Positions 21,001 to 64,000 are shown, numbered from the stretch's first letter. The stretch: 64,000 bases of DNA from an uncultured bacterium (GCA_964434115.1 CAYSSX010000007.1:82734-146733), one strand, 5' to 3'. The notes: a model not told the origin generated them from the sequence alone. Numbers and translations are program-made.

Positions 21001-24000
21001 CCAGGCCCTCCAGGAAGCGATGGGTTCCGAAGGCTTCACGTATATCTTTGATCACCTTAAGGAACAGCAGATCCTGATCCTTGAAATTACGCGAGGCATT
21101 AAGCTCGCGTCCGAGCGTCTGGCGACGCTGGAAAAGACCAGCTTCCAATTCTCTCTTAACGGGCTTCTTGCCAGCTGGCAAGTGGCACAGGCGGAAACGG
21201 AAAGAGCGCGCAAAGACGTGAGTAACAACCCGGTTCTTCACTGGTATGACATGACTTACCAGCATGCCAAAGATATGTTGGAAAAAACGAAGGATGTGAA
21301 GCAGTCCGGAGAGCTTGCGGTCAACGAACTCGAAGCGGCTTTAAAAGACCTTAAAGGCATTTCCCTTGAGTTTTTCAACATGGAGAAAATGGCCAAGGAT
21401 CAAAGCGAGGCGATCAAAGTCAATGCCGGTATTCTGAATAGCTTCCTGTCGGATCTGGGCTCCTTCAAGCTTTTCGATAAGATGCTGGTGGATTCCGAAA
21501 ACAAAACGCTTTCTTATAATGACCTCAAGTCTTCCACGGAAATATTCATGAAAGAATTGAACCGTCTCGTGGGCGGACTCCAGGGCGGAGGCAAGGGGAT
21601 TTCGGACTTTTACCGCGACCTCCGCGCCCTAGTCCAGTCCTATGATGATAATCAAGAGCTTCAGCGCCTGCTGGCAAGTATCGAACCGACCGCGCTTGAC
21701 GCTATGGCGATTCAAAAGGTTCTCGGGGACCTCGGCGCTATCATGACTTTCTACGCCCAGTCACTCCAGTATCGGGACAATGCCATGGCGGCGGTTGAAG
21801 CCCAGAAATCCATGGTTACGCTTTTCGAATCCGAGACTGATCCGGGCGCGCGCGCCGCGATCTTTGAACTTTACCGCGAGGCGGACAACAAACGCCAGGA
21901 AGCGATGAACCAGTCCATGGCCGCGGCACGCCAAATCCTCGCGCAGATCGGCCACCTTCGTGAATACATCACGAATTCCGATCCCTTTATTCAGAAAAAT
22001 TATCCGACGGTCATTTCCTTTGACAAACAGATGATCGTGGATCTTGTTGAAAAAATTATCGGCAGCGCGAGCCTTCTGACGCTTGCCAACGGCACTGGGG
22101 TGGAATCGCCTCTCGGTTCGATTGCGGAAGCCGAACACCGCGCCGATCAATTGACGCGGCTTCGTGCGGACGGGGGCCTTGCCAAGGATCTTACGCCGCA
22201 AGTTTCCGAAAACGGCGAAGAAGACGGCTTCTCATTTAAATTCACTGACAGCGTTGGGGTGAAAGATCTCCGTAATAATACGGTTTACCTCTGGAAGCCG
22301 GGGACCGGAACCGAAAACTGGTACGATCTTTCTGCCGGCAGCATTCAGGATGCGGCGGTCGGAATTCCCGCCGGCGGCGGCACGGATCCGCTGAACACGC
22401 CGGCCAACTTTGAACCGGGTAAATCCTATGTGATCATCCGCAACATCAAGCACCCGACAGACTTCGTGGTGCCTGAACCGCCTGCGGGCCCTCCGGTCCA
22501 TGAAAACAATGAATTCCTGTACCGCCTTGTGACCTTCCTCCGGGAACCGAAAGATGACCAGCCGGGCGAAATCGTGACCTATGTTCAGGTGCTGGAACGC
22601 CGCATTCTGGGAACGGCCCCGAATGATTATGTGGCATGGAACTGGGTGACTTTCGGCGGCGAGAAAAAATCCACCATTCCAAGCTACAAGCCCATGGTCG
22701 TCGTGAACTCGAACTTTGAACCCTGGACAGGCCGGGTTGTCCTGGAAAGCCGCGATGAGACCGGCGCGCCGGTGGTTTCCGTGGACGGTAAATCCTATAA
22801 AATCACGGGAAGTTCCACAGCGAACGGTGTCCGCACTTACACGGTCCAGATCCCGCCGAGCAGCACGGTTCCTCCCGCAAGCCTTGGAACCTTGACTCTG
22901 GATGTGACCAGCGCCCCGTTTGACGGACAGTTCACCGGGGATGTATCAACCCTTTACAGCGCCAAGCTTCGTCAGGACCAGATTGCAAAAGCACTCTTTG
23001 GTTTGGGGACCGCAACGTATGACGTGGATCCGACAAGCATACTCGGATTGAGAGGCGATACCTTCCGCCGCTCCGGCATGGTGGAAAATGCCGAGTCCAT
23101 TTCCTTCGTTCTGGATACCAACAATCCGAATTACGCCAACAAGGAAGTGGAAATTCAGGAAGGCCAGCCTGCGGCGGGCGGAGCGGCTGCCGTGCCCGAA
23201 AAATTCCGCATGCAGGGTGACGCGAATTGGACATCGGTCGGCGCGGATGCGGTCAAAACCGCTTATGGTTACATGATCAAGCAGACGATGGATCTGAAAG
23301 TCGTGGATGGACAGCTGAAGGTAGACGACTCATCGGATGATCAAATTGAAGGCAAGGTCGTGACCGAATATAAAGAAGGCGCCGTTGTGACGCGCATTTT
23401 TGTCCCGGGACGCGGCAACTTTGATGTCGCCGATGGCGTTCCTTTTGACGCTGCCAAACATCAGGCCGTTAAGATTGGTCCGAACAAGTATGTGATTTAC
23501 TACCGTATTGATCTGGGTGAGAGACTTGCCGACAAAGACGGCGATGGATTCATTTCCATGGATGTGGACCCTGACCTGATGTTCTGGCAGGACGGTCAGC
23601 TCGTGGACATTAAAAAGACCGATCTTGCAAACGGCGGAAAAGATAAATGGTATCACTTCGGCATTCAGGTGAAACCCGATGCCGATATCCTGAGCGCGGA
23701 CCGCGAGAAATACGCATTCACAGCGACCCGTGACCAGCTGGATGTTTCAAAACTTTTCTATCAGGGTGTCATCGATGCCCAGGATCCCCGGCTCTTCCAC
23801 AAGCAGATCGGCAAGTCCGGAGCGCCGCTCACGGCAAGCGATTCGATTGCGGTCGGTGATACGCTTGAAGTCCGGGACTTTGATTTTGAAGGCAGCTGGA
23901 GCCAGCCCGCGAAGTATAAAGTGATGAGTGCCGTGGCTATGCAGGTCCAGCTCGCCGGAGGGATCTGGGTCAAGCTCCGCAAAGGCCCCTCAGGCTGGGT

Positions 24001-51000: not shown

Positions 51001-54000
51001 GGCGGATTATCAGCAGTTGATTACCAATATGGGCAGTGCAGACCTTGACGCTGTGGCAGGTCTCTTTAAGGATGCGAAAGATTTCCAGGCCTTTGTCACC
51101 CAAACCCTGGGACAGGCCGGCGGCCTTGAAGTTTTGAAGAAAACAGCGGATGTCGCTGCTACCCTCCGGGCTGTCAAGGGCCTGGATGGTAACGAAGTTC
51201 TGGAAACACTGGGTGAGAATCTTAAACTGACCAAACTCTCGGATGTTTACAAGGATGGCGGCACTGACGGACTGACGAAATTTGTGTCCCAGATTTCCAA
51301 CACCAATGTGTTTATGGCTGCGGCCAAGCTTGCGGGAACACAAACAGCGACTCAGGCAGCCAATATCCCGTCGCAATTCCATACGGAACACTTTTTGAAT
51401 AATCTTCGGGACACTTTGGCATCGACCCAGGCTACCCGCGCGTCACCCGCGATTCCGCAGGCCATGCCGTCATCTCTTCCGCTTTCCCCGGGAACCGCCT
51501 CAATTCTTGGAAATACACTCGTGAATCGTTTTGGACTTATCGGAGGCTCCATCCTGGAAGGAATGTGGGAAGAAAGCGCGTTCCGCGGCGTGCTTGCTAT
51601 TGGCGCGACCCTGGCGGCTTCGTTCCTGACAGGCGGTCTGGCCTTAGGGCTTGTGCTTGGCGGCATGGTGGTGGCTCAGGCGCTTGTGTTCGCGGCGCTT
51701 CATAATAACGACTACCACGGCACATTGTCTCTGGGGAACTTCATGGGACTCTTTGCTTTTGGCGTTGTGGCCGGCGGCCTGGTCACCGCGATTACGCTTG
51801 CCACGGGCGGGACTTTCCTGGGTATTGCGGGTGCTATCGGTGCGGCCGCCACTTTCCACACCGCCTTTAATATTATTCAGCGGTTCAACAATTCCACCGG
51901 CGTGTCCAGCTTCTTCTCAGCTTTTCTCAATCAGGCCGGTTTTGTCTTCTCACCGTTGATTCTGCCTCTGCTTTCGCTGTCAGGCACCATGCTCACCGCG
52001 CTTGCCGGGGCCGCGGGTTTTGTGACATCGCTTTTGGGCGGCCTGGGCTTCCTGGTGGGATTGACGGGCATCTTCAATATGCTGCAGGGACAGCTGGTGA
52101 ACCTGCCGCAGGTGGCGCCTGACCTGGTCCGTTTGGATAATTTGAACTTCCTTCTCGGCCAGTATTCTCTGCCTCAGGTTGTAAGCCTGTTCCGCATGCA
52201 GGGCTTTGATGCTGAAACACTCCGCGTGGCGCTGGTTCAGTACACGCTGAGTACCAATTTCAGCAAGTTTGATTTCGGCCAGCTTGCCATTGCCTTGATT
52301 CAAGGCTATCAGGGCGTTCCAAATTTTGATCTTGCTGTGCTGGTTCAGAACTTCCTCGCGGTTCCGCAAATTCAGGTAGATGCGGCCAATTTTACATCGC
52401 TCATTCACGGCCTGCTGCAAAGCGGCGTGAACATTGGGGAAATCACGCAGCTGATCGCGTTGAGCTCTTTCCTGCAGAACAGCAATTTCAGCTCTTTACA
52501 GGTCATTACGGCGCTTCTGACGCTCCCGAATATCGGACACGACCAGATTGTGGACATCCTGGGCGCCTTAGTCCAGCTGCCGGGAATTAACGACACCAAC
52601 ATTAATGACATTATCAGCAATATTCGTGCGGTGCAGGGACTTGACCTTGATTTGTCGGAACTCGCGGGTATCCTGGTGCAGTTTAATAAATTCTCGATCC
52701 CGAACCTGGTGCAGGTTTTCGCCGGCCTTGTGGATTTCGCGAATATTAAAGTTGAGGACCTTCAGAATCTTGTCCTTGTCTTTTCATCGGTGGTGGACCT
52801 TTCGGACCTCCAGAACTTGACGGATTTTGTCACAGTGTTTGCAGGCAATGTGACAGACATTGCCCAGCTCCAGAAGCTGATCAGCAGCTTCACGAACCTG
52901 AACGTTCCGATTGTGAATGTGGTTCAGGTCTTCCTCGGGCTTCCCAATTTGCAGGGCCTGAATTTTGTGGACCTTCTTACGGTATTTACCACGATCCCGA
53001 ACTTGAGCAATACGGATCTCGTTGATATTTTCAACGCCTTTTCCACACTGGGAACTTTCCAGGGACTTACCGCCGTCGGTATTTTGAATGCCCTGATGGC
53101 TGGCAACTTTGCGAATGTTCCAGGCTTTACGGGCGCGAATTTACTTCAGATTCTGGACCTTTTCCGTGACCTGAATTCCTTTAAAGATCTGAAGGCGCTG
53201 GATATTGCGAACATCTTCAAGGCGATTCCTTCCCTGACAAGCCAGGACATCGTGAATCTTATGAATCTTTTGACAGGGTTTACCACGATCAACGATATCG
53301 TGGGGCTCGCCAATGCTCTTGTGGGTCTGGAGCAGCTGACGCAGGATGATGTGATCCGCCTCGCCAATCTTTTGATTATCAACATGCCGCAGGCCGCGGC
53401 CCTCGATGCTGCAGGACTTGCCGCGCTCGCGGATATCTTTAAAGCAAAAGGCCTTGATGATCTGCACATGATCCAGATCGCTCAGGTCTTTGCCGGCATT
53501 CCGAATCTTGACTCCACGAAAGTCCTGGCGCTTCTGTCCGTGTTTATGTCTATACCGTCCCTGCAGACGGAAGCGAATCTGCTTCAGCTGGCGCAGATTT
53601 TTGCCGGCGTCCCGGGCGTTGGCCTTGTGGATATCGCGACCGTGTTCCTTAACCTGCCCAATCTTTCCGAAGCGGCGGTTCTGGGTTTTGCCGGCATTTT
53701 CGCAGGAATCATGAATGCGAATGTCAATGTGAGCGTTCTGGAAATCCTGGGCGTGCTGAACCTCTTCTCGAGTGTGCCCAACATCAACATGGTCAATCTT
53801 GCGAGCGTGTTTGCCGGAGCTTTCACCGGCAATGAAAGCTCGCTGCTCATGCTGGCTCAGTTCTTTGCGGGCAAAATCAATGCGGGCGACCTTCAGGCCC
53901 TGACCCAGCTGCTTAAAGTCTTCACCGATATCCTGAGCCTGAACAACATGACGCAGGATGGGGCTGTGGACCGTCTGATCACAAGCTTCCTCGGCAATTC

Positions 54001-57000
54001 GAATGTTTCGATCGTGGATCTTGTGAAAGCGTTTATGACGCCGGAAAATCTTGCGGATGCGAATTTTGCCCAATCCCTTGCAAATCTCATGGCCCTCAGA
54101 ACCAGTGCCATGACGGTCCAGGAGCTCCAGGATATCCTTGGCGTCTTTGTGAACCAGGGGAGCATCAATTTGTTGAATCTTGTCGGAATTTTTGTGGACG
54201 CTCTTCCTGCGGGAGATCTGGACGCCCTTAAATTCCTAGTGCTCGGCTTCTCGAATTACCGGAATGTGGGACAGCTTTCCGAGCTTTCCGAATTGCTTGA
54301 GTTCTTTCACACGGCAGGCGTTGACATTCTTGACCTGGCGAACGCCTTCCAGGTCCTTCCCATGGTCCAGGCCGACATCCGGGGTTTTGTGGGGTTGTTT
54401 GCCACGCGTTTTGCGGACCTCAGCATCATTCAACTGGCTGGACTTTTTAATCTCTTCAAGTCCTTAAAGGACATTGACGGCAATAATTTTACGCTTGAGA
54501 CGCTTGTCGATATTTTCAAGGGAGTTGTGGACATCAATGATTTGAACAACCTTGGCAAAATCCTTGAATCTCTGTCCCAGATCACGAACCTCAATGATGC
54601 TGCGCAGTTCACGGAACTGTTCAATGCTTTCGCTGCCGCTCAAGTGAATTTGGCGGATCTGCTGTTTGCCTTCGGCACGCTCTCGAATGTGACTTTGACC
54701 CAGACGCAGATCCTGCAGCTGGCCAATTTGGCCGCGCTTGCAGCCAAAAAACAGGGTTATTTCACAAACGCGGCCGAGCTTGCCCGCATTTTGGACGTCC
54801 TTTCCAATCTGGGACTTTCAGCCACGGAAATTGCAGGCGTCCTTCTCGCACAGATTGATGTCACGGACAGCGCTCAAATGGCGCAGATCCTCGCGGCCTT
54901 TGCCCGGAATACGGACCTGTCGGTTCCGGCAAACTTGAGCGCGATCATGAATGCCTTTGCCGCGAATCTTGACCTTACAAACGTCCTTGAGCTCTTCAGC
55001 CTTTTTGAGGCTTTCAATACTCAGCAGGGTGTCACTTTCCCGGCGTTTACTCAGGCCTTTGTGAGTATCCCCGGTATTGTGACCATGCCGCAGGTCTTTG
55101 AAGAACTGGCCGAAATGCTGGCCCACCGGTATATGACCGACTCAAATTTCAGCGCTGCTGATATGCAGGCCGTCATTGATATTCTGATGAATCAGGGCAA
55201 TGTTTCGCGGGTGGCAATCCTCCAGCGTTTCATGCGCAACATGAACGTTCAGGACATCAATGACATGGCGCGTCTGGCCGCGGCTTTTGAAAACGCAGTC
55301 ACAAATGAAGCTGATTTGAGAAGCCTTATCAATGACTTTTTGGCCGCAGGTTTCACCGACCTGGGTAATGTCATCGCTGGAATTTCAACGCTCGGCTTCT
55401 TCTCTGATTTCAACAATCTCAAAGTGCTTGCGCTTGTGGCTGCACAGCTTCTGGATTATACGAGCGGGGATATTGAAGCAGCTGCCGCACGGGTGTTTGG
55501 CGCGATTGCCAGCCGCATGGACATGGGCGATAAAGCGCAGGTTCTGGCGATGCTTGAGATTTTTGCTAATAACGCGCTGCTGACGCTGCCGGAATATGCG
55601 ATGGGTATCCTGGTGAAAGCGTTCTTTGCCCAGGTGAACATCACGGATGCCAATGCCGTGAAGACCCTGGTGGAAGCTTTCTCGGAATTCTATCATTTGA
55701 CCACGGACGCGGCGAACCTTGACGTCTTTATTGCGGCCCTGTCGCAGGCGGGCCTCTCTCTCGGCGCTGTCGCTGAAACGCTGGCGGGCCTTCCGGGAAT
55801 GAATGCCTTTATGCTTGCCAACTCCATGGCCAAGGTTGCGCGGCTTGAAGATATGGAAGCCCTGATGAATGCCTTTGTCCGTGACGGGCGCCTGACTCTG
55901 GCGCAGTTTGTCGTCGCGGTGGCGTCGGCCCAAAACGTCGATATGGTTGAGTTTGCGCGTCTGATTGCCCCGCGTGTGGACGCTTCCAACCGCGAACAGC
56001 TCCGGATCATTATTAACGTCCTTCACCTCCAGGGCGGTGTTTCCTTTGTGACGCTTGCCGGAATCTTTGTCGATGCCGGAAAATTGAGTGTGGCTGAAAT
56101 CGCGGATATCTTCGGCCGTGAAATCGATGAGGCAAGCGTGAATGACATGATTACCTTCTTTGTCAGCAAGGGCTTGAGCCTTCTCCAGATCGCCCAGATC
56201 TTCATTAATGGCCAGGCGGACAGCACGACCCTGACCATGGAAGATCTTGTGTACTACTTCGGCGGTTTTGTGAACCAGCAGGATCTTGGAAGTTTGATCG
56301 ATCTCTTCCTGGCCTCCGGCAGTATCAGCATTATTCAGATTGGTCAAATGCTTCTGAACGCCACGAACGCGAATGTTACGAAAAACCAGATGGCCCGTGC
56401 CGTGATCTCCCGCGCCGGCATCGGCGATGTCATCGGGCTTTTTGGGCTGATTTGGAACTTCTTCTGGAACCAGAGTGTTTTTGGGTTCCTCGAAACGGCC
56501 CGCCTCTTCTTTGACGCGCTGGCCATGCCGCTGATTAATAGGCTCTCGGTGCTTGCGTCCGTCTTCAAAGCGTACTCGCAGCCCTATTCCGGAGTCGTCA
56601 AACTGAGTCTTGAAAACGGGTTGACGCTCGAAGACGCGGTCAAGAGTTTGAGTGAGCAGAATGTGCCGCTTGTGGACATCGTCCGCGCGATTCAGGCCGA
56701 GCTTCCGGGCATGAGCCTTCTGGATATTTCGAAAGTTCTTTATGACGCGGCCAAAATCAAGGGAGCGGCGATTTCCCTTCAGGACATCGTAAATCTGTAC
56801 AGAGATACGTTTGGTATCGATTACCGGCTTGTGATCAAGGCGATTTTTGGAATTGATACCCTGCCCGGCGGTGTCGTGGTGACTCAGCCGATCCGAGCCT
56901 CGGACATTGAAGCGGCTGGAACGATTCTGAATACCGTAAACCAGGCGACCCAACCAGCGGTGTCTAACAATAACGTGACAGTATCCCGCGATACGGCGAC

Positions 57001-60000
57001 AGTGACAGCCATTGCCCGTGCTGTGGCAACGTACGGAGTCGAACGAGCTCAGGAGATTGTGCAAGCTCTTCAGACCATCGCTGCCCAGGGAACCGTCGTG
57101 GTTGTGACAACTCAGACCGTGGATCTTGTTCAGCAGGTAATTCTTGACCGGGCCGCGAAACAGGAGAATGTTGCCCAATTGGCGCAGAATGCGGCCCTTG
57201 CGGTTCAGATCCTTCAGCAGGCGAATGTGACTCTTGGCGCGCAGGCGATTCCCATTACACCGGCGCTCATCAGCGGCGTGGTGGATGTGATTCAGCGCGT
57301 GGATGTGACCGTGACGGCTGCGAATCTTGCCCAGGCGGTTGCGGCGATTCAGCTGGTGGTGCCTGCGGGAACAACTATTACGGCTGCTCAAATCGCCGCG
57401 ACCATTGTTGCCATTCAATCCGGTGTGTTGGTGCAGGATATTACTCTCGCCAGTATTCAAGCCGTTCAGGCGATTCTTGACTCGAAAGACAAGGCGATTG
57501 ATGTCACAAAGATTACTGCTGTGGACATCAAATCTGTCGAAGCGATCCTTGTTGTGAACCCGGCGTTCCAGATCACAGCCGCGAGCATTGCCGCGGTCAA
57601 TATTCTGATCGAAAAAGGTCTTGCGGTTCAAACCGTGGAACGTATTGAAGCCGCGGTTCAGCTTGCGGCTGCGAAAATAGATATCGTGGAAGCCAGTGTT
57701 TTGGCCGCGGTCCAGGTGATCAGCTTTGGCTTGAAGGTCGATGTTGCGACTCTTCAGGCGCTGACTGAGGTCACGGGCGGCCTGACCCAGGTCACTGCGA
57801 CCAATATTGCGCTTGTGGCTGCGATTATCCGTTCAGGGGTTGCGGTCACGGACCTTGCTCAGTACATCGTGGCCAATGGCAGCGGTATTCAGATCATTAC
57901 CCCGCCTGCCGGGACAGCACTTAACATCCAGATGGGAAATGTTCAGGTCCAACTGCCGGCGGACACGGTGTTCCAGGTCAATCAAGCGACCGGTGAATTG
58001 ACCTATAAGGTTCCCGATATTGGCGGTCTTGTTACGATCGGCAGCCATTCTCAACTGGCCCTTGCCGGCGGTACTCAGGTGACGGTCAACCGCAACGGCG
58101 TGATGACTTATCAGGTGGCCGGAACCACGACCCAGATCGGCGGAGTAACGCTTGCGGCCAACACGACGATTACCGTGAACTCTCTTGGAGCCGTGACGGT
58201 GACCGGTACCAATGTGATTAATCTTGCTGGAAATACCGTGACTGTGACAACGATTAATGTCACGGAGCAGGGAGCTGTTCAGTACACGCTTCCCGCCGCG
58301 ATTCTTGTCAATGGTCTCGTGGTTCCGGCAGGAACCACGGTTTCTCAAACCGCGACAACTGTGGAATACACTGCCGTAGCCGACCTTACAGTTCCGGTCA
58401 ACGGCCAGAATGTTGTGCTTCCCGCCGGGACAATCTTTACGCTTTCAGAAGCAGGCCTTGCGATCAAGGTTTCGGCTGTGGAACAGACGATTACCGTGGC
58501 GGGTGAAACCGTGAAGATTGCGGCCAATGCCCAAGTCCTTGTGCTGGGTCAGGAAGGCGTGAAAGTGGTTGAAGGCACTGTGACTCTCGGCAGTGTGGTG
58601 GTTCAGCAGGGTGTGACGTTTACGGTCAGCACGGTGAATGGAACCGCGGCCGCAGTGGTGACGATCGCGGGCCAAGCCGTGACCCTGACGAATAATGTGC
58701 AGGTTTCTGTGGTGAACGGCGTTACGACGATTCAGGGTACGAATGTCGTGGGACAGGTGGTGGTAGGCACAACGGTTTATCAGGTCGCGGCCGGCACTCA
58801 GCTCACTTATACCGCTCAGGGAGCTCTTAAGATTGAGAGCGCTGCCGGTACGGTCATGGTCACCGAAGGCACCCTCAAGATCGAAACCGGCGGCCAAGTG
58901 GTGGAAGTTGCGGCGGGCGTTCAGATTGTTAAAACCCAGGACGGTATTTCCTTTGTCAATACGGGAGCAGCTGCCACAGTTGTCAAAGTCGGGACAGGCA
59001 TTTTGGATGTGTCCGGGTCTGGAAGCATCCGCGTGGACAGCAATGGCAATGTGATCGTCACAGGCGGGAATGTCAGTGTCACGGGACCGACAGCCGTGAC
59101 CATGCGTTTTGGTTCAGTGACGACAGCGATCAGCGCGGGAACTCTGGTCAATGTTAATGCTCAGGGGACGGTTCGGATCACGGCGGCCAATTCCCAGATT
59201 GCGGTCGGCAGCATGGTGGTTCCACTTGCCACAGGCATCAGCGTTTCGATTGATACGCAAACCGGCAAAGTGGCCGTGATTTCTGAAACCGCAGGAACCG
59301 TACTTAATGTCGGCGGCACTGTGATTAACACCACTCCGGGTGTCACGGCAGTGATCAACACTCAAAACGGACAGGTCGAGCTTACGGCTGTTTCCGCCGC
59401 TGCGGTCGTAACCGTCGGCGGAACGGTGGTGAATGTCAACCAAGGCAGTGTGGTTCGCGTGGATACGGCAGGCGCTGTCACCCTGGTTGCCGGAACCAAC
59501 GGCTCTGTCATTCAGGTTGCTGGCACTTCGGTGGTGGTCGGACAAAGCGGGGTGGTCAATATCGACGTTCAGGGTAAGGTTTCGATCGCGGCCCCTGTGA
59601 ACCGTACTTTGGACGTGACGGTTGGCACTACGGTTTATACGGTTGGCGCGGGAGTTCAGACCGTTTTTGAAAATAGCGTTCCGTCCTTCCATGCGACCGT
59701 GGATTCGAATGTGGTTGTCAATGGCGTCAAGGTGGAGGCCAAGGCCGGCACGGTCTTCGCTGTGGATGCCGCTGGTTCTATCAATGTTACGACCGGCGCC
59801 GTGGCCGTGGCTTCGGGTCCTGCCTCTGTGACGGTCACGATTCTGGGGCAGGTTTATGAGCTCGCTCAGGATTCCCGGATCGAAGTCAATACGCAGGGTG
59901 CTGTAACTCTTTCACAGGGCACTGTGGCCATGGTCGTGGATGTGAACAAGGCTCAAACGGTCAATGGCGTGACTTATACCGCCACGCAGGCCGCCACAAA

Positions 60001-63000
60001 GATCGAAGTTACTTCGACCGGCGGTTTGGCTGTGACAACCGGTGCTGTGACGATTGCCCACGCGGCTGCTGCGGAAGTCCGGGTGCTGGATATCAATGGT
60101 CTGGGGTACCGCCTCACGGGCGGCTCCACGATGACGCTGGACGCCGCCGGGAATGTGACCGTAACCGGCGGATCCATCTCCATCGCGAACCCCGGCAGTA
60201 CGGCTGCGGTGCGTACGGTAAATATCAACGGTGCTCTTTACACAGTCAATGGTAATTCCGCCCTTACGGTTCAGCAGAATGGAAGCATCCGTCTTGTGAA
60301 TGGAACTGTTACGGTTCAAAATGTTGCGGCCCAGGCGAAAACTGTGACGGTGGGTACGGCCGTGATTACAGTTGCCGCGAGTGAACGGGTCATTTTGACG
60401 GAAGGCAAGAATATTGAAGTTACGGGAGTCTTCACGCTTGAGAATACTTCCGCCACGGAATCTGTCACGGTTGTTTCAAACGCCCAGCTGATCACCGCTG
60501 CGGCAAGCTCTGCGGTTCGTGTTCAGGAAGTCGCAATTGGCGCCAGCGGAACCGTGGCTCAGAAAATTACGGTTGTTTCCGGAACCGCCACCGTGGTGAA
60601 CACGAGCACGTCATCGGTGCACTCGGTGGTAACGGCAGACGGTTCGATTTACCAGTTGGCCCCGGGCGCGGTCATGACGATTGATACGGCCAGCGCCATC
60701 ACCGTTACCGAAGGCCGCGTGGAACTCACGGCGGGCCGCGGAGGCTTGATCCGCTACGGCCAGTCGGTCATTCAGGTTGAAAAGGGAACTGTCATTGAAG
60801 TCATAAACGACACCGTGACCATCGCCGCATCAAGCAATGTCCGGACAGTGACGGTGGGCACAACCGTTATGCAGGTTGGTGCGGGTGCGGTCATCACCAC
60901 GGACCTCGCCGGTAACGTGGTTTTGAATGTCCAGGACATTACAACGATTCAAGCCAATGGCGTTCAGATTGAAGCCGGAGTTGGGACTCGGGTCAATGTG
61001 ACGTCCACAGGCGTTGTCACTATGGTCACTGGCGTGGGTGCCGCGGCGGTGACCGTGAACGGAATTCAGGCCCAAGTGGGTGTGGGCGCAATTATTTCTG
61101 TCGATGCTCAGGGAGTTCAGGTTCTTTACCCGGCCGGCCAGATTCTTCTGACGGTGAACGGCCAGACCTTTACGGTGCCGGCCCAGGTGGGTGTGAACTT
61201 TGCGGGTGGTGCCGTGACACTGGAATCCGGCGACCGGACCCGCACGGTTTCCTCCGCGAGCCTGACTTACACAATCGGCGCCAACAGCAGTCTTACTATT
61301 AATAACTCAGGCGTTTTGACAGTTAAAGCGGGTCAGGTCACGATTTCAGGCGGCAGCGCGACGGTTCAGTATGGAAGCGCCACAGTCCGTGTTACCGGAA
61401 CTGTGGTGGCAGCGGTGGACACGGTTCGTCCCACGACTTCAGCAGCGGTGACCTATACCCTTGGAAACGCCACGCTGACGGTTGCTGCAGGTCTTGATGT
61501 TGTTGCTGGCGGCGTGATCCGCACCACAGCCTTGACTCAGACCGGTACGTTGACTGTGGCTGGAACGCAGATCCTTACGAAGGCCGGCGCAGCGGTGGAA
61601 GTCAATGCACAGGGAGTCTGGACGGTTCAGGCTGGTGCTTTGGGTGCGGCAGTGGTGATTAATGGTGTTACGACTCAGGTGACGGCCGGCGGCGTAATCA
61701 CGGTCGACAATCTGGGACATATTTCAATCGTTTACCCGCAGACACAGACTCAGGTGGTTTTGGTTGGCAGCACGGTTGTTGAAGCTGCGGCGGGTGCCCA
61801 GGTCACCGTGAATAACGGTGTTGTTAATGTGGTCGCACAGCAGGCCTCGACGGTCACGGTGAACGGTTCCGTTTATCAGGTGGCGGCGGGAACCGAAATG
61901 ACGGTCAATGCGGCCGGCGTTGTCACGCTCACAAAAGCAGGCTCGGTGACAGTTGTCACGGGTACCGTCAATGTGCAGGTTGGCGCCAATGTGATTACGG
62001 TTCAAAACGGGACAACCCTGACACTGAATGCGAGCGGCAATTTCACGGTTGCCTCTGCGGCCAATGTTACGCTGATCGTTAACGGTGTCACGGTCACAGC
62101 TGCTGCCGCGAATATTAATGTGACGGCGCAGGGCCTTGTGGAAGTGACTGATACAGTGAATCAGCAAAAACAGATTTTTGGCTTTGGCCAGTCCGTCACA
62201 GTCCCTGCCGCAGCCCAGGTGAGCCTGGTCAATGGCCAGCTCTCAGTTCAGGTTGCTCAGACAGCGGGCAATGTGGTGGTTGGAGCTTCGACTCTTGCCG
62301 CGGCGGCAAACACTTCATTCCTTGTGAACAGCTCAGGCCAGATCATGGTGCAGACCGGTCAGCTGACGGTCGGCAGCACAACGGCCGCGGGCGTCAGTTT
62401 TGCGTATGGAAGCACGGTCATCAACGCTCGTACAGGAACCGTTGTCAATGTCAACAGTCAGGGAGTTTCGACGATCACACCCACAGCAGCGGTGACCGGC
62501 GGCCTGACCGTTGTCAACCAGGGCGTGACCGTACGGCTTGGAGCAGGCGTTGCCTTAACGGTCGACATTGCCGGAGTTGTTGTTGCTCAAAGCGGAGCCA
62601 ATACCGTTCTTTCGCTGAACGGCCAGCTTGTGGAAGTCGGACAGGGAAGATCGATTACGGTCACTGAAAATGGAACGGCCATCATTGCGGCTGGACCTCA
62701 GACAAGAATTTTTACAAATACGGGATTAACGCTGACTCAACTCGAAGATGCCCGTGTGACAGTTACGGCCCAGGGCATTGTGGTTGAAGCGGGAACAACG
62801 GGTGTACGCGCCAGCAGCGTCCTTTTCCAGGGTCTCACGTTCAGCGCCGGAACCATCCTTCGTTTTGAAAACAACACGTCGGTTGTGGAGCTTGCTCAGA
62901 ATGCGGTTATGACCAAGGGCGGAGCGGTTATTACGGCAGCCGAAGCAACACGTTTGACCTTTACGGAAGCCGCGGTTACGTTGCAAAGCGGTAATGTAAC

Positions 63001-64000
63001 GGTCACCAATTCTCCGGTTAATTTTGTGGTGGGCGCGACCGTGTTCGAAGCTCAGGTCGGCACAAAAGTTTCAGTCGACAGTCTCGGTGTTACTCAAGTC
63101 CAGGTAGGCACAGTGCCTGTGGTCCTTTCTACTGCGAATAACACCACTGTGACACTTGCCGCCGGATCCCAATTCTCAATCGATCAGGCAGGCGTCGCTG
63201 TGGTCACTAATACCGCTGCAGGCACGGTCGTCACATCCGGCTCTACGGCTGTAACGCTGGGTGCGGGAGCGAATCTTTTGGTTGCAGAACAGGGCGAGGT
63301 GATTGTCACGGCTGCGGTAGCGACAACGATCACCAACGGCACACAGTCCTTTGTCCCAGGCGTTGGAACAAGCCTTACTGTTGGCGTGAATGGAGCGGTT
63401 ACTGTTTCGACATCAACACAAACCTCCACGGGAATCTTGAATGGCATGACCACAGTCATGGCCGCCAACACCTCAATCAATATGGCCGCCAACGGCAGCA
63501 TCAATCTTGTCCGCGGTGCGATCCAGGTGAAAACAAATGCTGTCAGCGGCGTGCTGACGCTGGGCGCGAATACTTACCAGGTCAATGCGAACACAACCTT
63601 GAGCGTGAACGCTGCCGGCGTTCTTACGGTGACGGCAGGCAGTGTCACGGTCAGCCAGGGTGCTGTTACGGTTCAGATGGGTACAAGCAATGTTCAAGTT
63701 CTTGCCGGCAGCACGATTAGTGTAGATGCTTCGGGAATGGTGAAAGTTACGACGACACAGGGAACAGTCCAGCAGACCGCGACGGGAGTTACCGCCACGC
63801 AGAGCGGTGTGAGCGTGACGGTGCCGGTCGGTTCTGCTGTCAACACGACAACCGGCATGATTCAGGTCACCGTGAATCAGAATACTGATGCTGTCATTAC
63901 GATGGGCAGCGTGACGCGTACGATTCAGGCGCAGTCATCATCCATCGACATTCTGGTCCTCGGCGGAGTGGCTCAAATCATTGCCAACGATACGGCAACG
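2..64000 (+). CDS. Single uninterrupted ORF in frame +2, 21,333 sense codons, open at both window edges. Internal fragment of a giant (>21,333 aa) multidomain membrane/surface protein gene. Partial at 5' and 3' ends.
   Basis: Manual codon-by-codon translation of frame +2 from nt 2 to nt 64000 (last codon 63998-64000 'acg') gives a coherent protein throughout, with Ca-binding loops, TM helices, repeat families and helical low-complexity, and no in-frame stop. Independent support from the ORF track: frame +2 has many in-frame ATGs (for example 131-133), yet no + ORF in the track is in frame 2 mod 3. All + ORFs start at coordinates divisible by 3 (777, 2547, 2961 ... 59622), so frame 2 cannot contain a stop. 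All long - strand ORFs (55385..57631, 43616..45367, 28514..29956, 2840..3982, 23990..25063 and others) end at coordinates = 1 mod 3, which is the codon-aligned antisense frame of a real GC-rich CDS. Confidence 0.9.
806..853 (+). repeat. Gly/Tyr/Met-rich low-complexity island 1 ('GDFGDGEYMGGMGGSS')
   Basis: Direct translation. ggc/atg/tac-rich nucleotide stretch. Confidence 0.7.
1004..1050 (+). repeat. Gly/Tyr-rich low-complexity island 2 ('DPGQGYGGYGNQPPADP')
   Basis: Direct translation. Confidence 0.7.
1774..1830 (+). repeat. Gly/Tyr/Met-rich island 3 ('DDGEGGHMGMGGYGGYTTS')
   Basis: Direct translation. Confidence 0.7.
3385..4340 (+). repeat. Tandem array A of dockerin-type (F-hand) Ca2+-binding repeats. 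11 loops of form D-[VILM]-N-x-D-G-x-[VI]-[DN]-x-x-D, each followed by an amphipathic helix.
   Basis: Loops read directly: DMNGDGTFDSAD, DVNQDGIVDMED, DTNGDGQYTTSD, DVNKDKQINFRD, DINRDRKTDEGD, DVNNDGQVSRKD, DVNGNGKTGDDE (nt 3884-3919), DVNRDGVVNNQD, DYDGNGNLDFMD, DVNDDGRVDDRD, DVNEDGVVDAED. Post-loop helices such as 'DVNSLNKIINYV' and 'DVALISKVLDYL' match the dockerin repeat architecture. Asp rather than Glu at loop position 12 favours dockerin-like over canonical EF-hand. Confidence 0.75.
4380..5990 (+). repeat. Beta-hairpin G-x-x-Y repeat modules (block 2)
   Basis: 'LDGVRYVVSLHPSGAYLF', 'VGGKEYDVLFQPYERYLF', 'LDGHEFILERDVKTKRVKL', 'VEGIEYYVVNNFDGTYTF', 'LEGTVYEIHEDPFSGQMTL', 'LDGIRYDVEENADQSYTF', 'IRGSIYDIIANTYTGTVTL'. 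Same unit as block 1. Confidence 0.5.
5095..5180 (+). repeat. Gly/Tyr-rich island 4 ('EYGPGGNYGGYEGAFLGGNYGGTPQDQQ')
   Basis: Direct translation. Confidence 0.7.
6020..6565 (+). other. Concanavalin A-like lectin/glucanase-fold domain, resembling the DUF1080 / 3-keto-disaccharide-hydrolase-like family (~180 aa).
   Basis: 'FDNDSAPKGWTPEAGKWAVRGEMLEAERQGVRSYGNTGIYTDADFELSVDMAMEQ ... NHYAFRILRNGDNTTIGLF ... DFYRLKITSKDSEITVSLNDNVVFEVTD ... GYVAFSN ... AQFDNLKV'. This follows the G-W-x-V-x-x-G-x-L ... Y-x-D-F-E-L ... FDN[LI] landmarks typical of that family. Assignment from motif memory only, no search run. Confidence 0.45.
6640..8900 (+). repeat. Tandem array B of dockerin-type Ca2+-binding repeats (~21 loops), interrupted near its start by Gly/Tyr island 5.
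   Basis: DLNADGRFDRKD, DVNGDGVGDAKD, DVNGDNVVNDLD, DVNNDGNVDFKD, DLDHNGLIDGND, DLNFDGKVELSK, DINQDGMVDQAD, DLNNDGKVDSQD, DVNRDGSINGRD, DLNGDNAVNGLD, DLDGNGTLDLKD, DVNKDGKIDDQD, DINADGKVDQSD, DINKNGSFDLDD, DVNGDGKVNKFD, DFNQDGSFESLD, DVTGDNVVDAND, DVNGDGVITDKD, DVNGDGKVDASD (nt 8675-8710), DIQKDFIIDTLD. Loops sit at roughly 30-35-aa spacing, each followed by a short helix. Confidence 0.75.
6742..6900 (+). repeat. Gly/Tyr/Met-rich island 5, the longest ('CSPGMEGCEGYESGGYPGMGGSMGAGGYNFGGSGGEGFNYGGIGGVNSPGNQP'). Contains a C-x5-C pair.
   Basis: Direct translation. Confidence 0.7.
14135..14222 (+). repeat. Gly/Tyr/Met island 6 ('SGGGMGGYGGMGGYGGMGGYGGEEGGEY') with a nucleotide-level 18-nt tandem triplication (14147-14200).
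   Basis: Units 'ggtatgggcggttatggc' (14147-14164), 'ggtatgggcggttacggc' (14165-14182), 'ggcatgggcggctacggc' (14183-14200). They differ only at synonymous positions, and each encodes GMGGYG. Confidence 0.8.
16831..17155 (+). repeat. Four additional dockerin-type Ca2+-binding loops embedded inside the helical stalk.
   Basis: 'RADINLDDRVNAKDVFDL', 'IDINNDGKRDMLDKAIWQHL', 'GDVNADGLLTDRDVGLYREYM', 'VDVDGNGVVNAADVAAINGFVLG'. Confidence 0.65.
22200..24300 (+). other. Beta-rich globular module(s) of unknown fold, following the stalk.
   Basis: 'GFSFKFTDSVGVKDLRNNTVYLWKPGTGTENWYDLS ... SYKPMVVVNSNFEPWTGRVVLESRDETGAPVVSVDGKSYKITGSSTANGVRTYTVQIPPSSTVPPASLGTLTLDVTSAPFDGQF'. Alternating pattern, Pro/Gly turns, no helix-forming runs. 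Confidence 0.4.
24800..29900 (+). other. Mixed alpha/beta modular region carrying sparse paired-cysteine motifs, consistent with small disulfide loops in extracytoplasmic domains.
   Basis: Cys pairs read directly: 'SCNAGQTMCVYN' (~25165-25200), 'SCTPCQGANG' (~25255-25285), 'SFCGANKDQSCLL' (~26965-27005), 'DPCVAPACNP' (~27965-27995), 'FCLEKACQAGG' (~28175-28210), 'FDCTKDPWKGQCHDP' (~28800-28845), 'LCPMFTLPTSDDCVMMDDDG' (~29215-29275). Cys is otherwise nearly absent from the protein. Confidence 0.5.
30000..34330 (+). other. Second predominantly alpha-helical region (~1,450 aa)
   Basis: A/L/E/Q/R/K-rich helix-favouring composition, for example 'ARRTEARVEIEQDILAGLQKDADQYRTLQKNLETTRDKITDELKLIDLQLL', 'LDARARLAQADANIARAKEIYDATLLDYERAKEMARGADDILAQYELE'. 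Confidence 0.5.
34330..41800 (+). repeat. Beta-rich modular region (~2,500 aa) that re-uses the G-x-x-Y hairpin unit and carries paired cysteines.
   Basis: 'VLIGGQWYRVTYSLKGNTGMMTITGDDV', 'VEINGQEYLIFGDGLGYSIASKTGFYFEV', 'VKMGGYPYRVKISLDGSNNVIVRYSQI', 'VMLDGKVYTASLSSMVNGTLTIGTLKL', 'VTIDGKKYKSRVFKNDDRGVLTLDMT', 'IIDGMKYSVSIRTGLDGQTLMTITT'. Cys pairs: 'LLCTPAAGDTCTFAQTCPAAGCPGG' (~36060-36135), 'SCTSGDGGVECTKAF' (~36520-36560), 'WDCEQGNVDCSQPP' (~38480-38515), 'QCAGADKKQCGD' (~40693-40728). Confidence 0.5.
42095..42240 (+). other. Isolated ~48-aa hydrophobic segment with glycine-zipper character. Candidate helical hairpin or re-entrant membrane segment.
   Basis: 'ALFGYFLNMTMLAMSFPVMMGLAGGLSGLGVGAAIGEAIMEGALIAP' contains G-x-x-x-G-x-x-x-G spacing (GLAGGLSGLGVGAAIG). 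Flanked by polar sequence. Confidence 0.45.
42880..43000 (+). repeat. Pro/Gly/Ser/Thr-rich flexible linker
   Basis: 'WGPPPSSSGGGTGGPGSPGGSTTTTPPGGTMTGSGSAGSG', followed by the Cys pair 'SCNGNPNCKV'. Confidence 0.75.
48810..49160 (+). repeat. Trp-rich ~11-residue amphipathic repeats immediately N-terminal to the membrane core
   Basis: 'VWDYVLKPVVD/YLTYVKDFWVE/QWNNYVVPAAN/WVWNNAIAPWA/VPLWNNVVKPA/VETVGGWIKEG/AAWVGKQIVAG/...SWINWAGQQVVAAWNWFAS'. Trp and Pro/Asn recur with ~11-residue periodicity. Confidence 0.5.
49185..50725 (+). other. Polytopic transmembrane block 1 (about 10-12 predicted TM helices)
   Basis: Consecutive ~20-aa uncharged hydrophobic runs: 'ILHTLAWGAIIAGSLLIAPSWFIYAAVGAGVLAAVA', 'MAIAVAIGVGIALIALAIAGAIFFAPLLFAAAGTLSFGASILATVLTVSLLTMTLAGIILLVGGIAAY' (nt 49558-49765), 'AVIMATYTAAILLVGNILGV', 'FYLSLALNLALIGGFVGAAFALGGVGFLLLIPALLIGAATLAGANFFTMTGLKFSGVLGLAADVILFIASM', 'WIFVKAMVAQTLSTGSFALSLRLWMNMMF', 'LLTFLHTMPLGPALFLLGPMGLYLG'. 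These are separated by short polar/charged loops (K/R-rich, for example 'KKAVIM', 'HDYKRIMGKNN'). Confidence 0.7.
50730..51570 (+). other. Soluble ~280-aa loop between the two TM blocks
   Basis: Polar/amphipathic sequence with few long hydrophobic runs: 'ISQKAIQMGSQNFLANFIGQGLKGFLDEVFVEGIGGDVTELL ... TADYQQLITNMGSADLDAVAGLFKDAKDFQAFV ...'. Confidence 0.5.
51580..52075 (+). other. Polytopic transmembrane block 2 (about 5-6 predicted TM helices)
   Basis: 'FRGVLAIGATLAASFLTGGLALGLVLGGMVVAQALVFAALH', 'LSLGNFMGLFAFGVVAGGLVTAITLATGGTFLGIAGAIGAAATF', 'FFSAFLNQAGFVFSPLILPLLSLSGTMLTALAGAAGFVTSLLGGLGFLVGLTGIF'. Confidence 0.7.
52110..56880 (+). repeat. Array of about 80-90 short (~16-20-aa) helical repeats, roughly L-x-x-[LIV]-[LIVA]-x-[VIL]-F-x-x-[LIV]-P-N-[LI]-x-x-x-D. 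Candidate alpha-solenoid of unrecognised family.
   Basis: 'LVQVFAGLVDFANIKVED / LQNLVLVFSSVVDLSD / LQNLTDFVTVFAGNVTDIAQ / LQKLISSFTNLNVPIVN / VVQVFLGLPNLQGLNFVD / LLTVFTTIPNLSNTD / LVDIFNAFSTLGTFQG ... LHMIQIAQVFAGIPNLDSTK / VLALLSVFMSIPSLQTEAN / LLQLAQIFAGVPGVGLVD / IATVFLNLPNLSEAAV ...'. This continues without interruption for ~1,590 aa. Confidence 0.65.
56900..57870 (+). repeat. Ala/Ile/Val/Gln-rich low-complexity repeats of form (I/V)-T-x-A-x-I-x-A-V-Q-A-I-L
   Basis: 'NVAQLAQNAALAVQILQQANV', 'ANLAQAVAAIQLV', 'ITAAQIAATIVAIQSGV', 'ITLASIQAVQAIL', 'ITAVDIKSVEAIL', 'ITAASIAAVNILIEKG', 'IEAAVQLAAAKIDIV'. Confidence 0.55.
57870..64000 (+). repeat. C-terminal Thr/Val/Gly/Ala/Asn/Gln-rich beta-strand repeat region (>2,040 aa in window, continues beyond nt 64000). 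Candidate beta-solenoid / fibrous adhesin-like shaft.
   Basis: Nearly charge-free alternating pattern, for example 'TVTVGTTVYTVGAGVQTVFEN', 'VTVTGGSISIANPGSTAAVRTVNINGALYTVNGNSALTVQQNGSIRLVNGTVTVQNVAAQAKTVTVGTAVITVAAS', 'TVTVNGSVYQVAAGTEMTVNAAGVVTLTKAGSVTVVTGTVNVQVGANVITVQNGTTLTLNASGNFTV'. Degenerate ~30-45-aa periodicity with recurring 'G-x-V-T-V', 'V-N-G', 'A-G-T' elements. Confidence 0.6.

Follow-up and report, generated by a model that had tools for sequence, protein, structure and literature searches.

The open frame and its features

The whole 64-kb window, that is, the complete stretch of DNA that was analysed, is a single open frame on the + strand, which starts from nt 2, extends over 21,333 codons and is open at both ends. 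No stop interrupts it, whereas the other five frames contain 168–1,257 stops, and codon-position GC is uniform in this frame. In the giant protein of >21,333 aa, Pfam recognises 12 dockerin stretches and almost nothing else; the protein also has clusters of TM helices. The dockerin domains are read in the same frame as the helical array described below (Pfam, E 3e-64), and Pfam Dockerin_1 is confined to the N-terminal part; the 19 dockerin-like Ca-binding loops found by a regular expression in the whole protein all lie in aa 1156–5697. The array itself is a diverged tandem repeat of ~1,570 residues (Table 1). The preliminary description had placed it at nt 52110–56880, which corresponds to aa 17370–18960, and both the coordinates and the frame are correct.

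Table 1. Coordinates of the array, its subdivisions and the neighbouring features.
Feature	Residues (aa)	Nucleotides	Strand	Description	Basis
Divergent CPBP/Rce1-like core	17179–17291	51536–51874	+	motifs EESAFRG, FAALH, HTAFN	sub-threshold PF02517 match; motifs
Membrane cluster 2	17195–17360	51584..52081	+	~6 hydrophobic helices, directly N-terminal to the array	hydropathy
Whole array	17386–18950	52157..56851	+	~89 helix-loop units of 13–24 aa (median 17)	profile scan, cross-validation, tile-to-tile BLASTP, AF2 models
Array core	17476–18500	52427..55501	+	motif clearly recurrent	autocorrelation, profile scan, cross-validation
Best-modelled tile	17819–17946	53456..53839	+	7 helices of 9–17 aa; 5–6-residue loops, e.g. 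G-I-P-N-L-D	AF2
Degenerate C-terminal part	18501–18950	55502..56851	+	helix-loop pattern persists, motif weak	profile, BLASTP, AF2
Downstream context		56882..64000	+	same frame, runs off the window	autocorrelation, hydropathy, composition, periodogram

The last membrane helix of the upstream cluster ends near aa 17360 and the first recognisable repeat unit starts at aa 17388, so that the array does follow the TM core immediately, as had been claimed. A 126-aa piece of this core matches PF02517 over model positions 8–92 of 93 (E 0.0046, 17.7 bits), below the curated cut-off of 22.4; longer tiles give no PF02517 match, and no match was found in NCBIfam. The motifs EExxxR, FxxxH and HxxxN/D, which we take to be the three catalytic motifs of the CPBP/Rce1 family, are present in order and all in hydrophobic segments (EESAFRG at aa 17190, FAALH at ~aa 17230 and HTAFN at ~aa 17286), and EE..FRG is unique in the 21,333 aa. 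These matches suggest a CPBP/Rce1-like identity for the TM core, divergent and sub-threshold as it is. No homologues of the core were found in any search.

Downstream of the array, a distinct repeat of 20–24 aa, ITAAxIAAVxxIxxGvxVxD, occupies aa ~19100–19290. It is followed by a Val/Thr/Gly/Ala-rich region with a periodicity of ~8.3 aa and strand-like hydropathy. In all, >2,300 aa rich in Val/Thr/Gly/Asn come after the array, with a strand-like periodicity that is typical of surface adhesins, and by these sequence features the distal region is probably beta-rich.

The repeat unit and its predicted fold

The units of the array follow the pattern x-[SDN]-[LIM]-x-[DQN]-[LI]-[AVL]-x-[AVIL]-F-x-[GA]-[LIV]-[PG]-[NTS]-[LIV]-x-[DN] and are most often spaced by 15 or 18–19 aa. 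In aa 17501–19000 there are 41 occurrences of the seed motif [LIVM]x.[LIVMAT]F, against 0–3 per 500 aa elsewhere. BLOSUM autocorrelation peaks at lags 3, 15, 18 and 33 (z = 9.6, 5.3, 5.4 and 4.3), and the hydropathy periodogram of the array peaks at 18.1 aa. An iterated profile detected 63 units in aa 17300–19100, 59 of them inside the array, compared with 7.9 in shuffles of the same residues. For cross-validation, the background was the composition of the region itself: a profile from aa 17386–18100 recovered 14 units in aa 18101–18960 (shuffles 1.1 ± 1.0, maximum 5), and the reverse, from the second half to the first, recovered 19 units against 1.4 in shuffles. The flanks, like another helical region, score no better than shuffles. 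The signal of the motif is strong to ~aa 18500 and weak over aa 18501–18960 (4 matches against 0.5 in shuffles). By BLASTP, 150-aa tiles of the array match one another at 26–31% identity over ~130 aa, and tile 17986 still matches tile 18586, in the degenerate C-terminal part, at 26% over 129 aa. The tandem repeat that had been reported is therefore real and beyond chance by profile, shuffles, cross-validation and autocorrelation, and these data also establish its limits. At the nucleotide level, tandem repeats are not visible across the array; DNA-level copies are only 18–38 nt long, share 60–95% identity with the reference copy and lie, in all cases checked, at distances divisible by 3.

Some details of the preliminary description need amendment. 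The Phe described as invariant is present in 44 of the 59 profile-detected units, where the detection itself was seeded on Phe. A total of 80–90 units is obtained only by counting predicted helices, since only ~60 are recognisable by sequence. The acidic residue said to follow the turn is in fact a D/N/S position at the N-terminus of the predicted helix that follows.

Neighbouring units at distance 1 and at distance 2 are equally alike, and this lack of A/B alternation indicates that the sequence unit is one helix rather than a hairpin. Such equivalence of all units is unusual for hairpin solenoids. The conserved columns are the hydrophobic positions, the turn and the D/N/S position, and elsewhere the unit is mostly variable, uncharged and polar, with no conserved patch and few charges. 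Over 1,575 aa, the array has a net charge of −72, 4.4% K+R, 52.6% L/I/V/F/M/A and a GRAVY of +0.59; the charge and the low K+R argue against nucleic-acid binding. For a soluble domain, a GRAVY of this size is very high. The hydropathy has its strongest periodicity at 120 degrees and not at ~100 degrees, which would suit some 3-10 character.

The array has no detectable relatives. Tiles of 300 aa gave no match in Pfam even at E ≤ 10, and NCBIfam and PDB sequences returned nothing specific to the repeat. No relatives of the array were found in two protein libraries of 5.8 and 1.84 billion entries, nor in GTDB genomes and JGI metagenomes. At the level of sequence, the array is thus a repeat family represented by a single instance. 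Without homologues, conservation gives no support for a function.

In AlphaFold2, the best-modelled tile (128 aa) consists only of helices and short loops with pLDDT 89.4 and pTM 0.79, in a model built with a pseudo-alignment of internal tiles that could favour regularity. A 1,200-aa tile, for which the input was nearly single-sequence, was modelled at a moderate pLDDT of 65 and pTM of 0.37. Helix accounts for 70% of it; 68 helices have 6 aa or more (median 12 aa), with a mean spacing of 17.6 aa, and strands appear only at its last residues. The helix boundaries of the two models agree where they overlap, and extrapolation from 68 helices per 1,200 aa gives ~89 for the whole array. The pLDDT is mostly 55–84 over aa 18501–18950. 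The conserved Phe is found 1–3 residues before the helix end. The helical nature of the units, which had been proposed, is therefore established as a prediction.

The closest superpositions of the 128-aa model in Foldseek are CSN4 (4d10_D; TMq 0.58, rmsd 4.5 Å) and the proteasome chain 9bui_W (TMq 0.54), with a best E against PDB of 0.46 and rmsd of 4.3–4.5 Å. The long model matches large HEAT/TPR/PPR arrays (Ski3, ATM, mTOR, importins and PPR10) at probability 1.0 but with TM-scores of only 0.1–0.17. The matches listed are generic alpha-solenoids (TPR-like, HEAT and PPR), none of them specific; together with Pfam, NCBIfam and PDB sequences, they leave the original statement that no named family fits in place. 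A generic alpha-solenoid is recognised by tandem helix-turn units, an all-alpha fold and no long-range globular topology, and the array has a regular helix spacing and solenoid-only Foldseek matches. On the models, the fold is very probably an all-alpha helix-turn solenoid of a new family. Stacking of the helices as hairpins may be supposed from the Foldseek matches alone. Of the ~40-repeat hairpin solenoid suggested in the preliminary description, the up-down hairpins fit the TPR-like, HEAT and PPR matches of the model, but the sequence unit is one helix.

Possible roles of the array

We consider it an even chance that aa 17386–18950 form one continuous alpha-solenoid of one-helix units that serves as a membrane-tethered rod or spacer and carries the beta-rich region. 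About 90 copies of the unit would be joined in a giant membrane-anchored, dockerin-bearing protein. Each would consist of a ~12-residue helix ending in phi-F-x, a 5–6-residue turn of the form G/A-phi-P/G-N-phi, and a D/N/S that opens the next helix. Since the conservation is limited to hydrophobic and turn positions and the rest is variable, uncharged and polar, the array would be structural and not a module for sequence-specific binding. As a semi-rigid rod or spring, it would measure tens of nanometres; judged from the usual rise of TPR-like and clathrin-leg solenoids, a length of ~30–60 nm may be expected. The N-terminus of the rod would be tethered to the membrane helix cluster with its CPBP/Rce1-like core, and the C-terminus would hold the Val/Thr-rich, probably beta-rich distal region away from the membrane. 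As a testable picture, the layout at the cell envelope would be, in order, the dockerin-bearing part, a polytopic anchor with the CPBP-like core, the helical rod and the beta-rich region. The role as a spacer, taken by itself, we put at slightly under even, and an extracytoplasmic location of the array appears plausible.

Alternatively, the array could be a cytoplasmic (or periplasmic) docking scaffold of the TPR/HEAT type instead of a spacer, with a long surface that would bring partner proteins or further segments of the giant protein to the membrane; we find this unlikely. The structural class does match that of TPR, HEAT and PPR scaffolds. The K/R-rich flank after TM cluster 1 suggests a cytoplasmic segment before cluster 2, from which six helices would return the chain to the cytoplasm and place the array there, the TM-helix parity of the clusters being uncertain by hydropathy. 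In a recent survey, 46% of 916 long Omnitrophota proteins are predicted to be TM-only, which its authors read as bulk on the cytoplasmic face (Nielsen & Lui, 10.64898/2026.06.07.730766). Nevertheless, a cytoplasmic domain would not typically sustain such low K+R and high GRAVY over 1,575 aa, the variable positions offer neither a conserved patch nor many charges, and the array is followed by the long adhesin-like sequence.

The same hydrophobicity, with 52.6% L/I/V/F/M/A and few charges, could also mean that the short helices lie on or in a lipid or other hydrophobic interface, or associate with themselves as a coat. The direct junction with the TM cluster and the unusual 120-degree periodicity would agree with such a membrane-surface layer. 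Yet no segment within the array reaches TM-like hydropathy, and helices of ~12 aa are too short for a bilayer. AlphaFold2 packs the helices against one another at pLDDT 89, and the regularity of the Pro/Asn/Gly turns and the D/N/S that open the helices agree with a folded solenoid; this arrangement, in place of a free soluble rod, is improbable. Equally improbable is that the array serves the CPBP/Rce1-like core as its substrate or as a regulatory appendage, whereby a membrane-near cleavage would free the solenoid and the beta-rich part from the giant precursor. The PF02517 match spans the full model, the three motifs lie ~95 aa upstream of the array, and it has been proposed that giant proteins are processed by peptidase domains of their own (10.1101/2023.11.21.568195). 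Against this, the Pfam score is under the curated cut-off, the TM core lacks homologues in any search and nothing points to a cleavage site; the 90-unit solenoid would be left unexplained, and processing would add to the main explanation without replacing it. Finally, an artefact of assembly or annotation, or an untranslated frame, is hardly credible: although protein and DNA are absent from all collections searched, the stop-free frame with its uniform GC, the in-frame dockerins, the in-frame spacing of the DNA-level copies and antisense ORFs without family matches all speak against it.

Most likely, the array is an extended helical rod beside its membrane anchor, in which the repeat family is new, while the type of architecture and the alpha-solenoid fold class are ordinary. 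Giant bacterial proteins are largely unannotated, and the array adds a well-delimited orphan family of ~90 units that folds confidently in silico. Its one-helix unit of 15–19 aa is shorter than the units of named alpha-solenoid families and could inform the evolution of helical repeats and the size of a minimal stackable unit, which is relevant to repeat-protein design. The significance is limited by the ordinary fold class, the single instance and the inferred function. A bolder view, to which we give perhaps half the weight of the rod itself, is that a solenoid class of its own is seen here for the first time, with equivalent helix-turn units of half the size of any named helical repeat, forming an unusually hydrophobic, nearly uncharged rod of tens of nm outside the cell as the stalk of a giant surface machine. 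If true, such a class would also suggest that a one-helix unit can give rise to hairpin repeats such as TPR, or be what remains when they collapse.

Comparison with known repeat and giant proteins

The TPR is a 34-aa unit with the signature W4-L7-G8-Y11 / A20-F24-A27-P32, and its antiparallel hairpins form a right-handed superhelix. A 34-aa unit with distinct A and B helices is ruled out here, as no TPR model matches at E ≤ 10, the periods are 15 and 18 aa, and neighbours are as alike at distance 1 as at distance 2. HEAT and Armadillo units have 37–47 aa and two or three helices; neither has a Pfam match in the array, the 15–19-aa unit differs, and the resemblance of the long model to such arrays is only local. 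Like TPR-like and PCI-associated superhelices, HEAT and PPR, the array consists of tandem short helices with tight turns, and its ~17.6 aa per helix is half of the 34–35-aa TPR or PPR unit. Unlike them, it has no sequence similarity to these families, a one-helix unit without A/B alternation, the same phi-P-N-phi turn after every helix and a far more hydrophobic, charge-poor composition.

LRRs have a 20–30-aa unit, LxxLxLxxNxL, and their concave face is lined by a beta-strand from each unit. They are rejected, given that AlphaFold2 places no strands within the array, Pfam has no LRR match and the Asn belongs to a phi-P-N-phi turn, which does not agree with LxxLxLxxN. Dockerin or EF-hand-like repeats were also dismissed, as a regular expression found the array free of DxNxDGxxxxxD loops. 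The LRV is a 24-aa alpha/3-10 solenoid with one alpha-helix per unit. By description, the array resembles it in having one helix per unit, all units equivalent, a Leu-rich sequence and a short turn or 3-10 element in between; it differs in the unit of 15–19 aa instead of 24, and there is no LRV match in Pfam or among the top Foldseek matches. The superposition of the model on TPR-like hairpins would also imply antiparallel helices, unlike the parallel helices of LRV. The leg of the clathrin heavy chain (the CHCR 'alpha-zigzag') is a rod of short 10–12-residue helices at ~14–15 aa per helix, with a super-repeat of ~145 aa that comprises 10 helices. The clathrin repeat itself is rejected: PF00637 does not match, clathrin is absent among the best 50 Foldseek matches, and no dominant lag occurs near 145 aa (with lags up to 400 computed, those beyond 33 are scattered at z ≤ 4). 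By description, the leg is the closest analogue of the array known to us for helix length and rod-like use.

Among giant proteins, those of Omnitrophota include dockerin-type, membrane-anchored forms, and the long proteins of this group are mostly unique in sequence, with an abundance of diverged repeats but no tandem repeats in the DNA, according to two reports (10.1101/2023.11.21.568195; 10.64898/2026.06.07.730766). To that extent the present protein is similar, with its >21,333 aa, dockerins, TM clusters and diverged repeats without DNA tandem repeats. In the available parts of these reports, the Omnitrophota giants are described with beta-helix tubules, CBM35/dockerin ladders and HEAT/TPR/WD arrays, and not with the unit of the array. 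Giant1–3 of Apilactobacillus kunkeei are extracellular and are predicted to form elongated, fairly stiff alpha-helical repeat rods with a beta-solenoid domain; they have a signal peptide and 3,000–8,000 aa, were recovered from cell-free culture supernatant, and their helices are described as parallel (PMC12863079). Unlike them, the array protein is anchored by polytopic TM clusters, and an exhaustive search of 1.84 billion representatives revealed no sequence relationship. The likeness is one of description rather than structure, and it lies in the logic proposed for the array, namely a helical rod with a beta-rich end.

Repeat unit and its recurrence

The tandem repeat reported in the preliminary description at nt 52110-56880, which corresponds to aa 17370-18960 in the + frame, is real. 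Within aa 17501-19000 there are 41 copies of the seed motif [LIVM]x.[LIVMAT]F, versus 0-3 per 500 aa elsewhere. In the BLOSUM autocorrelation, aa 17400-18960 show peaks at lags 3, 15, 18 and 33 (z = 9.6, 5.3, 5.4 and 4.3, respectively), a pattern different from that of the neighbouring regions, and the top long-period peak of the hydropathy periodogram of the array lies at 18.1 aa. An hmmsearch of the whole protein with a one-unit HMM yielded 11 domains only, and was replaced by our own profile scan for unit detection. Of the 63 units detected by the iterated 16-column profile in aa 17300-19100, 59 fall in the array; shuffled sequences give 7.9. In a stricter test, the background was the region's own composition and the profile was trained on one half only. 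Applied to aa 18101-18960, the N-terminal-half profile then found 14 units (shuffles 1.1 +/- 1.0, maximum 5), and the C-terminal-half profile, applied to aa 17386-18100, found 19 (shuffles 1.4); half-trained profiles gave no more than the shuffle level in aa 16721-17190, 18961-19800 and 3001-7000. Since BLASTP of the whole repeat region against itself returned the identity match only, 150-aa tiles were compared with one another, and these match at 26-31% identity over ~130 aa, e.g. tiles 17986 and 18586.

The unit is a single helix and a turn of 15-19 aa, with the consensus x-[SDN]-[LIM]-x-[DQN]-[LI]-[AVL]-x-[AVIL]-F-x-[GA]-[LIV]-[PG]-[NTS]-[LIV]-x-[DN] and commonest spacings of 18, 15, 19 and 16 aa. 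The Phe had been regarded as invariant; it is present in 44 of the 59 detected units, detection itself having been seeded on Phe, and the claim is not retained. The acidic residue noted after the turn would be, according to the models, a D, S or N at the N-terminus of the following helix. As for the 80-90 units proposed, ~60 are recognisable by sequence, and only the helix number extrapolated from the model to 1,565 aa, ~89, reaches that figure. The motif is strong to about aa 18500 and weak in the remainder of the stretch. Windows anchored at helix ends have a similarity of -10.4 at distance 1 and -10.8 at distance 2 (all pairs -12.5; random anchors -14.2 +/- 0.5). The near equality of the two distances indicates no A/B alternation of units; together with the lack of a super-repeat at lags up to 400 in the array, it leads us to reject a super-repeat of two or more units.

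The DNA of the array contains no tandem repeat. The DNA repeat copies are just 18-38 nt long, are 60-95% identical to the reference copy and, where checked, are spaced in-frame. The array is thus old and diverged, and a recent DNA tandem expansion is rejected. Repeats of giant proteins are generally reported to be likewise old and diverged (10.64898/2026.06.07.730766).

Predicted fold and search for relatives

The helical nature of the units, also proposed earlier, is supported by AlphaFold2 models. Twelve non-overlapping internal tiles of the array served as a pseudo-alignment; overlapping tiles were left out, since MAFFT would simply align such tiles at the offset they have in the sequence. 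The 128-aa tile aa 17819-17946 was modelled in this way with a mean pLDDT of 89.4 and a pTM of 0.79, as seven helices of 9-17 residues joined by loops of 5-6 residues. The predicted helices end in V-F-A, and the loop reads G-I-P-N-L-D or a variant. A control model of aa 17761-18960 with almost no alignment (two rows) has a pLDDT of 65, a pTM of 0.37 and 70% helix; its helix boundaries agree with those of the smaller tile in the overlap, where the pLDDT is 64-82. Its helices of 6 residues or more number 68, with a median length of 12 and a start-to-start spacing of 17.6 on average (median 17). Its only strands are two short ones at the very end, near aa 18950.

Foldseek found nothing significant in the PDB for the confident model (best E 0.46). 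The best superpositions are with CSN4 (4d10_D, TMq 0.58, rmsd 4.5 A) and a proteasome chain (9bui_W, TMq 0.54), and TPR-like solenoids as best superpositions lend support to the solenoid reading suggested before. The long model matches very large alpha-solenoids only (Ski3, ATM, mTOR, importins and PPR10) with probability 1.0 yet TM 0.10-0.17, so that the resemblance is one of local helix-turn-helix only. Weak ankyrin-like and giant-virus matches were obtained in BFVD (E >= 0.63). The matches to solenoids point to the alpha-solenoid as the fold class, and the predicted fold is most likely one of up-down hairpins. The hydropathy of the array (52157-56881, +) peaks at an angle of 120 degrees (period ~3.0) and not at ~100, versus 105 degrees in aa 3001-7000, the Ala/Leu-rich helical region; a triplet-like pattern of polar and hydrophobic columns runs across helix and loop. 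This would be compatible with short helices buried broadly on two sides, or with a degree of 3-10 character.

Other folds were considered. An LRR or a beta-solenoid is rejected since no strands are predicted in the repeat, and a left-handed beta-helix with an 18-residue coil since lags 6 and 12 carry no signal. Helix-hairpin-helix, EF-hand and dockerin loops are rejected as well, with neither a Pfam match nor a Ca-loop regex match in the array.

The repeat had been assigned to no named family, and this stands. No repeat match was found in Pfam with 5,000-aa tiles or with 300-aa array tiles (the latter at E <= 10), nor any match to the array in NCBIfam, nor to a repeat tile or the membrane core before the array among PDB sequences at E <= 10. 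A word-indexed library of 5.8 billion proteins gave nothing for the 1,581-aa region, for the membrane core or for a profile of 16 three-unit tiles. When aa 17400-18599 (1,200 aa) were compared exhaustively by phmmer with 1.84 billion cluster representatives, there were 0 matches at E <= 0.001, and GTDB species genomes and JGI metagenomes, each searched with two different 800-aa queries, gave nothing. Of the clusters that proteins of 10,000 aa or more form, ~80% are reported to be singletons (10.64898/2026.06.07.730766), with which this absence of relatives is consistent. We regard the array as a new repeat family, unique so far, inside the well-known alpha-solenoid class. It is noteworthy for its one-helix unit, its extreme composition and the total absence of relatives in the searches made; its significance is limited by the ordinary fold class and by a function that is inferred.

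The host protein and the flanks of the array

The window (2-64000, +) is a single reading frame that is open at both ends and has no stop in its 21,333 codons, and the gene therefore exceeds 64 kb. In the other five frames there are 168 to 1,257 stops, for which reason the ORF listing comprises short antisense ORFs only. Along the frame, codon positions 1 and 3 have a uniform GC and position 2 a more variable one (0.33-0.48). An artefactual frame or array is excluded for practical purposes by the absence of stops, the dockerin match (E 3e-64) and the uniform codon-position GC. Two long antisense ORFs were noted, 55385-57631 (-, 748 aa) and 53141-54073 (-, 310 aa). Neither has a Pfam match, and their frame is stop-poor throughout the window, with just 168 stops; they are ruled out as real genes, the most likely reading being shadow ORFs of the giant gene.

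Features of the giant frame around the array
Feature	nt	aa	Strand	Basis
Dockerin type I stretches (12)		first 3,000 aa	+	Pfam Dockerin_1, E 3e-64
Dockerin-type Ca-loop motifs DxNxDGx[LIVM]NxxD (19)	3467-8710 and 17018-17125	1156-2903 and 5673-5708	+	regex
3-keto-disaccharide hydrolase-like domain	6029-6553	2010-2184	+	Pfam, E 1.5e-7
Ala/Leu-rich helical region (A 12-16%, L 11-13%)	9002-21001	3001-7000	+	
Membrane cluster 1, ~9 helices	49184-50152	16395-16717	+	hydropathy
CPBP/Rce1-like core (probable)	51536-51874	17179-17291	+	EESAFRG, FAALH, HTAFN; PF02517 E 0.0046
Membrane cluster 2		17195-17360	+	hydropathy
Repeat array	52157-56851	17386-18950	+	
Second, different short repeat ITAAxIAAVxxIxxG-v-x-V-x-D, 20-24 aa	57299-57870	~19100-19290	+	
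Val/Thr/Gly/Ala/Asn-rich region (V 18-19%, T 14-18%), off window end	~57900-64000	~19300-21333	+	

A weak spectrin-like match lies in the Ala/Leu-rich region (Spectrin_SYNE1, E 4e-4, aa 3874-4020). Pfam at E <= 0.01 gave nothing for aa 5001-10000 or for the final 10,000 aa. The composition switches sharply at cluster 1, from a GRAVY of ~-0.4 and K+R of 10-12% upstream to +0.5 to +0.7 and 3-6% downstream, up to the window end. Just upstream of the array, EESAFRG (aa 17190), FAALH and HTAFN, which we take to be the three motifs of CPBP/Rce1-like intramembrane proteases, occupy consecutive hydrophobic helices; EE..FRG is found nowhere else in the 21,333 aa. When a 126-aa piece is scanned alone, it matches PF02517 over model positions 8-92 of 93 with 17.7 bits (curated cut-off 22.4); longer tiles do not match. 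The membrane core probably carries a very divergent CPBP-like core. Beyond the array, neither the second repeat nor the Val/Thr-rich region has a Pfam match. The latter has an autocorrelation period of ~8.3 aa (peaks 7-9, 16-17, 24-25, 33-34 and 41-42) and a strand-like hydropathy with an angle peak of 180 degrees, and is probably beta-solenoid or adhesin-like.

Proposed role and comparison with known systems

The array stands between a polytopic anchor and a long region that is probably beta-rich. This placement suggests that it may act as a rod or spring keeping the distal part off the membrane. TPR-like solenoids usually rise ~0.9-1 nm per hairpin, and the clathrin leg ~0.4 A per residue; from these values the array would be roughly 30-60 nm long. 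The conserved unit positions are the hydrophobic ones, the turn and D/N/S, the others being variable, and the region is acidic and charge-poor, which matches a purely architectural solenoid. Such a pattern speaks against code reading in the manner of PPR or TALE arrays, and nucleic-acid-reading repeats of this kind are rejected on the net charge of -72.

Judging by its K/R-rich composition, the flank after cluster 1 would be cytoplasmic and the dockerin-bearing part outside. For the array, an extracytoplasmic location is favoured by its composition and adhesin-like continuation, with the helix number in aa 16718-17386 uncertain; a docking scaffold on the cytoplasmic side appears unlikely. The composition is odd for a soluble domain (GRAVY +0.59, K+R 4.4%, over 1,575 aa), and a lipid- or interface-associated layer could be imagined, improbable as we judge it. 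It is equally doubtful that the array is an appendage released by the adjacent CPBP-like core.

The array unit is half of a TPR/PPR unit. The architecture of the host protein matches that of the 'dockerin-type', membrane-anchored giant proteins of Omnitrophota in two reports (10.1101/2023.11.21.568195; 10.64898/2026.06.07.730766). No sequence relationship to the extracellular giant proteins of Apilactobacillus kunkeei was detected by phmmer in the 1.84 billion representatives; the proposed rod design resembles that of these proteins, in which a predicted rod of alpha-helical repeats is combined with a beta-solenoid domain (PMC12863079).
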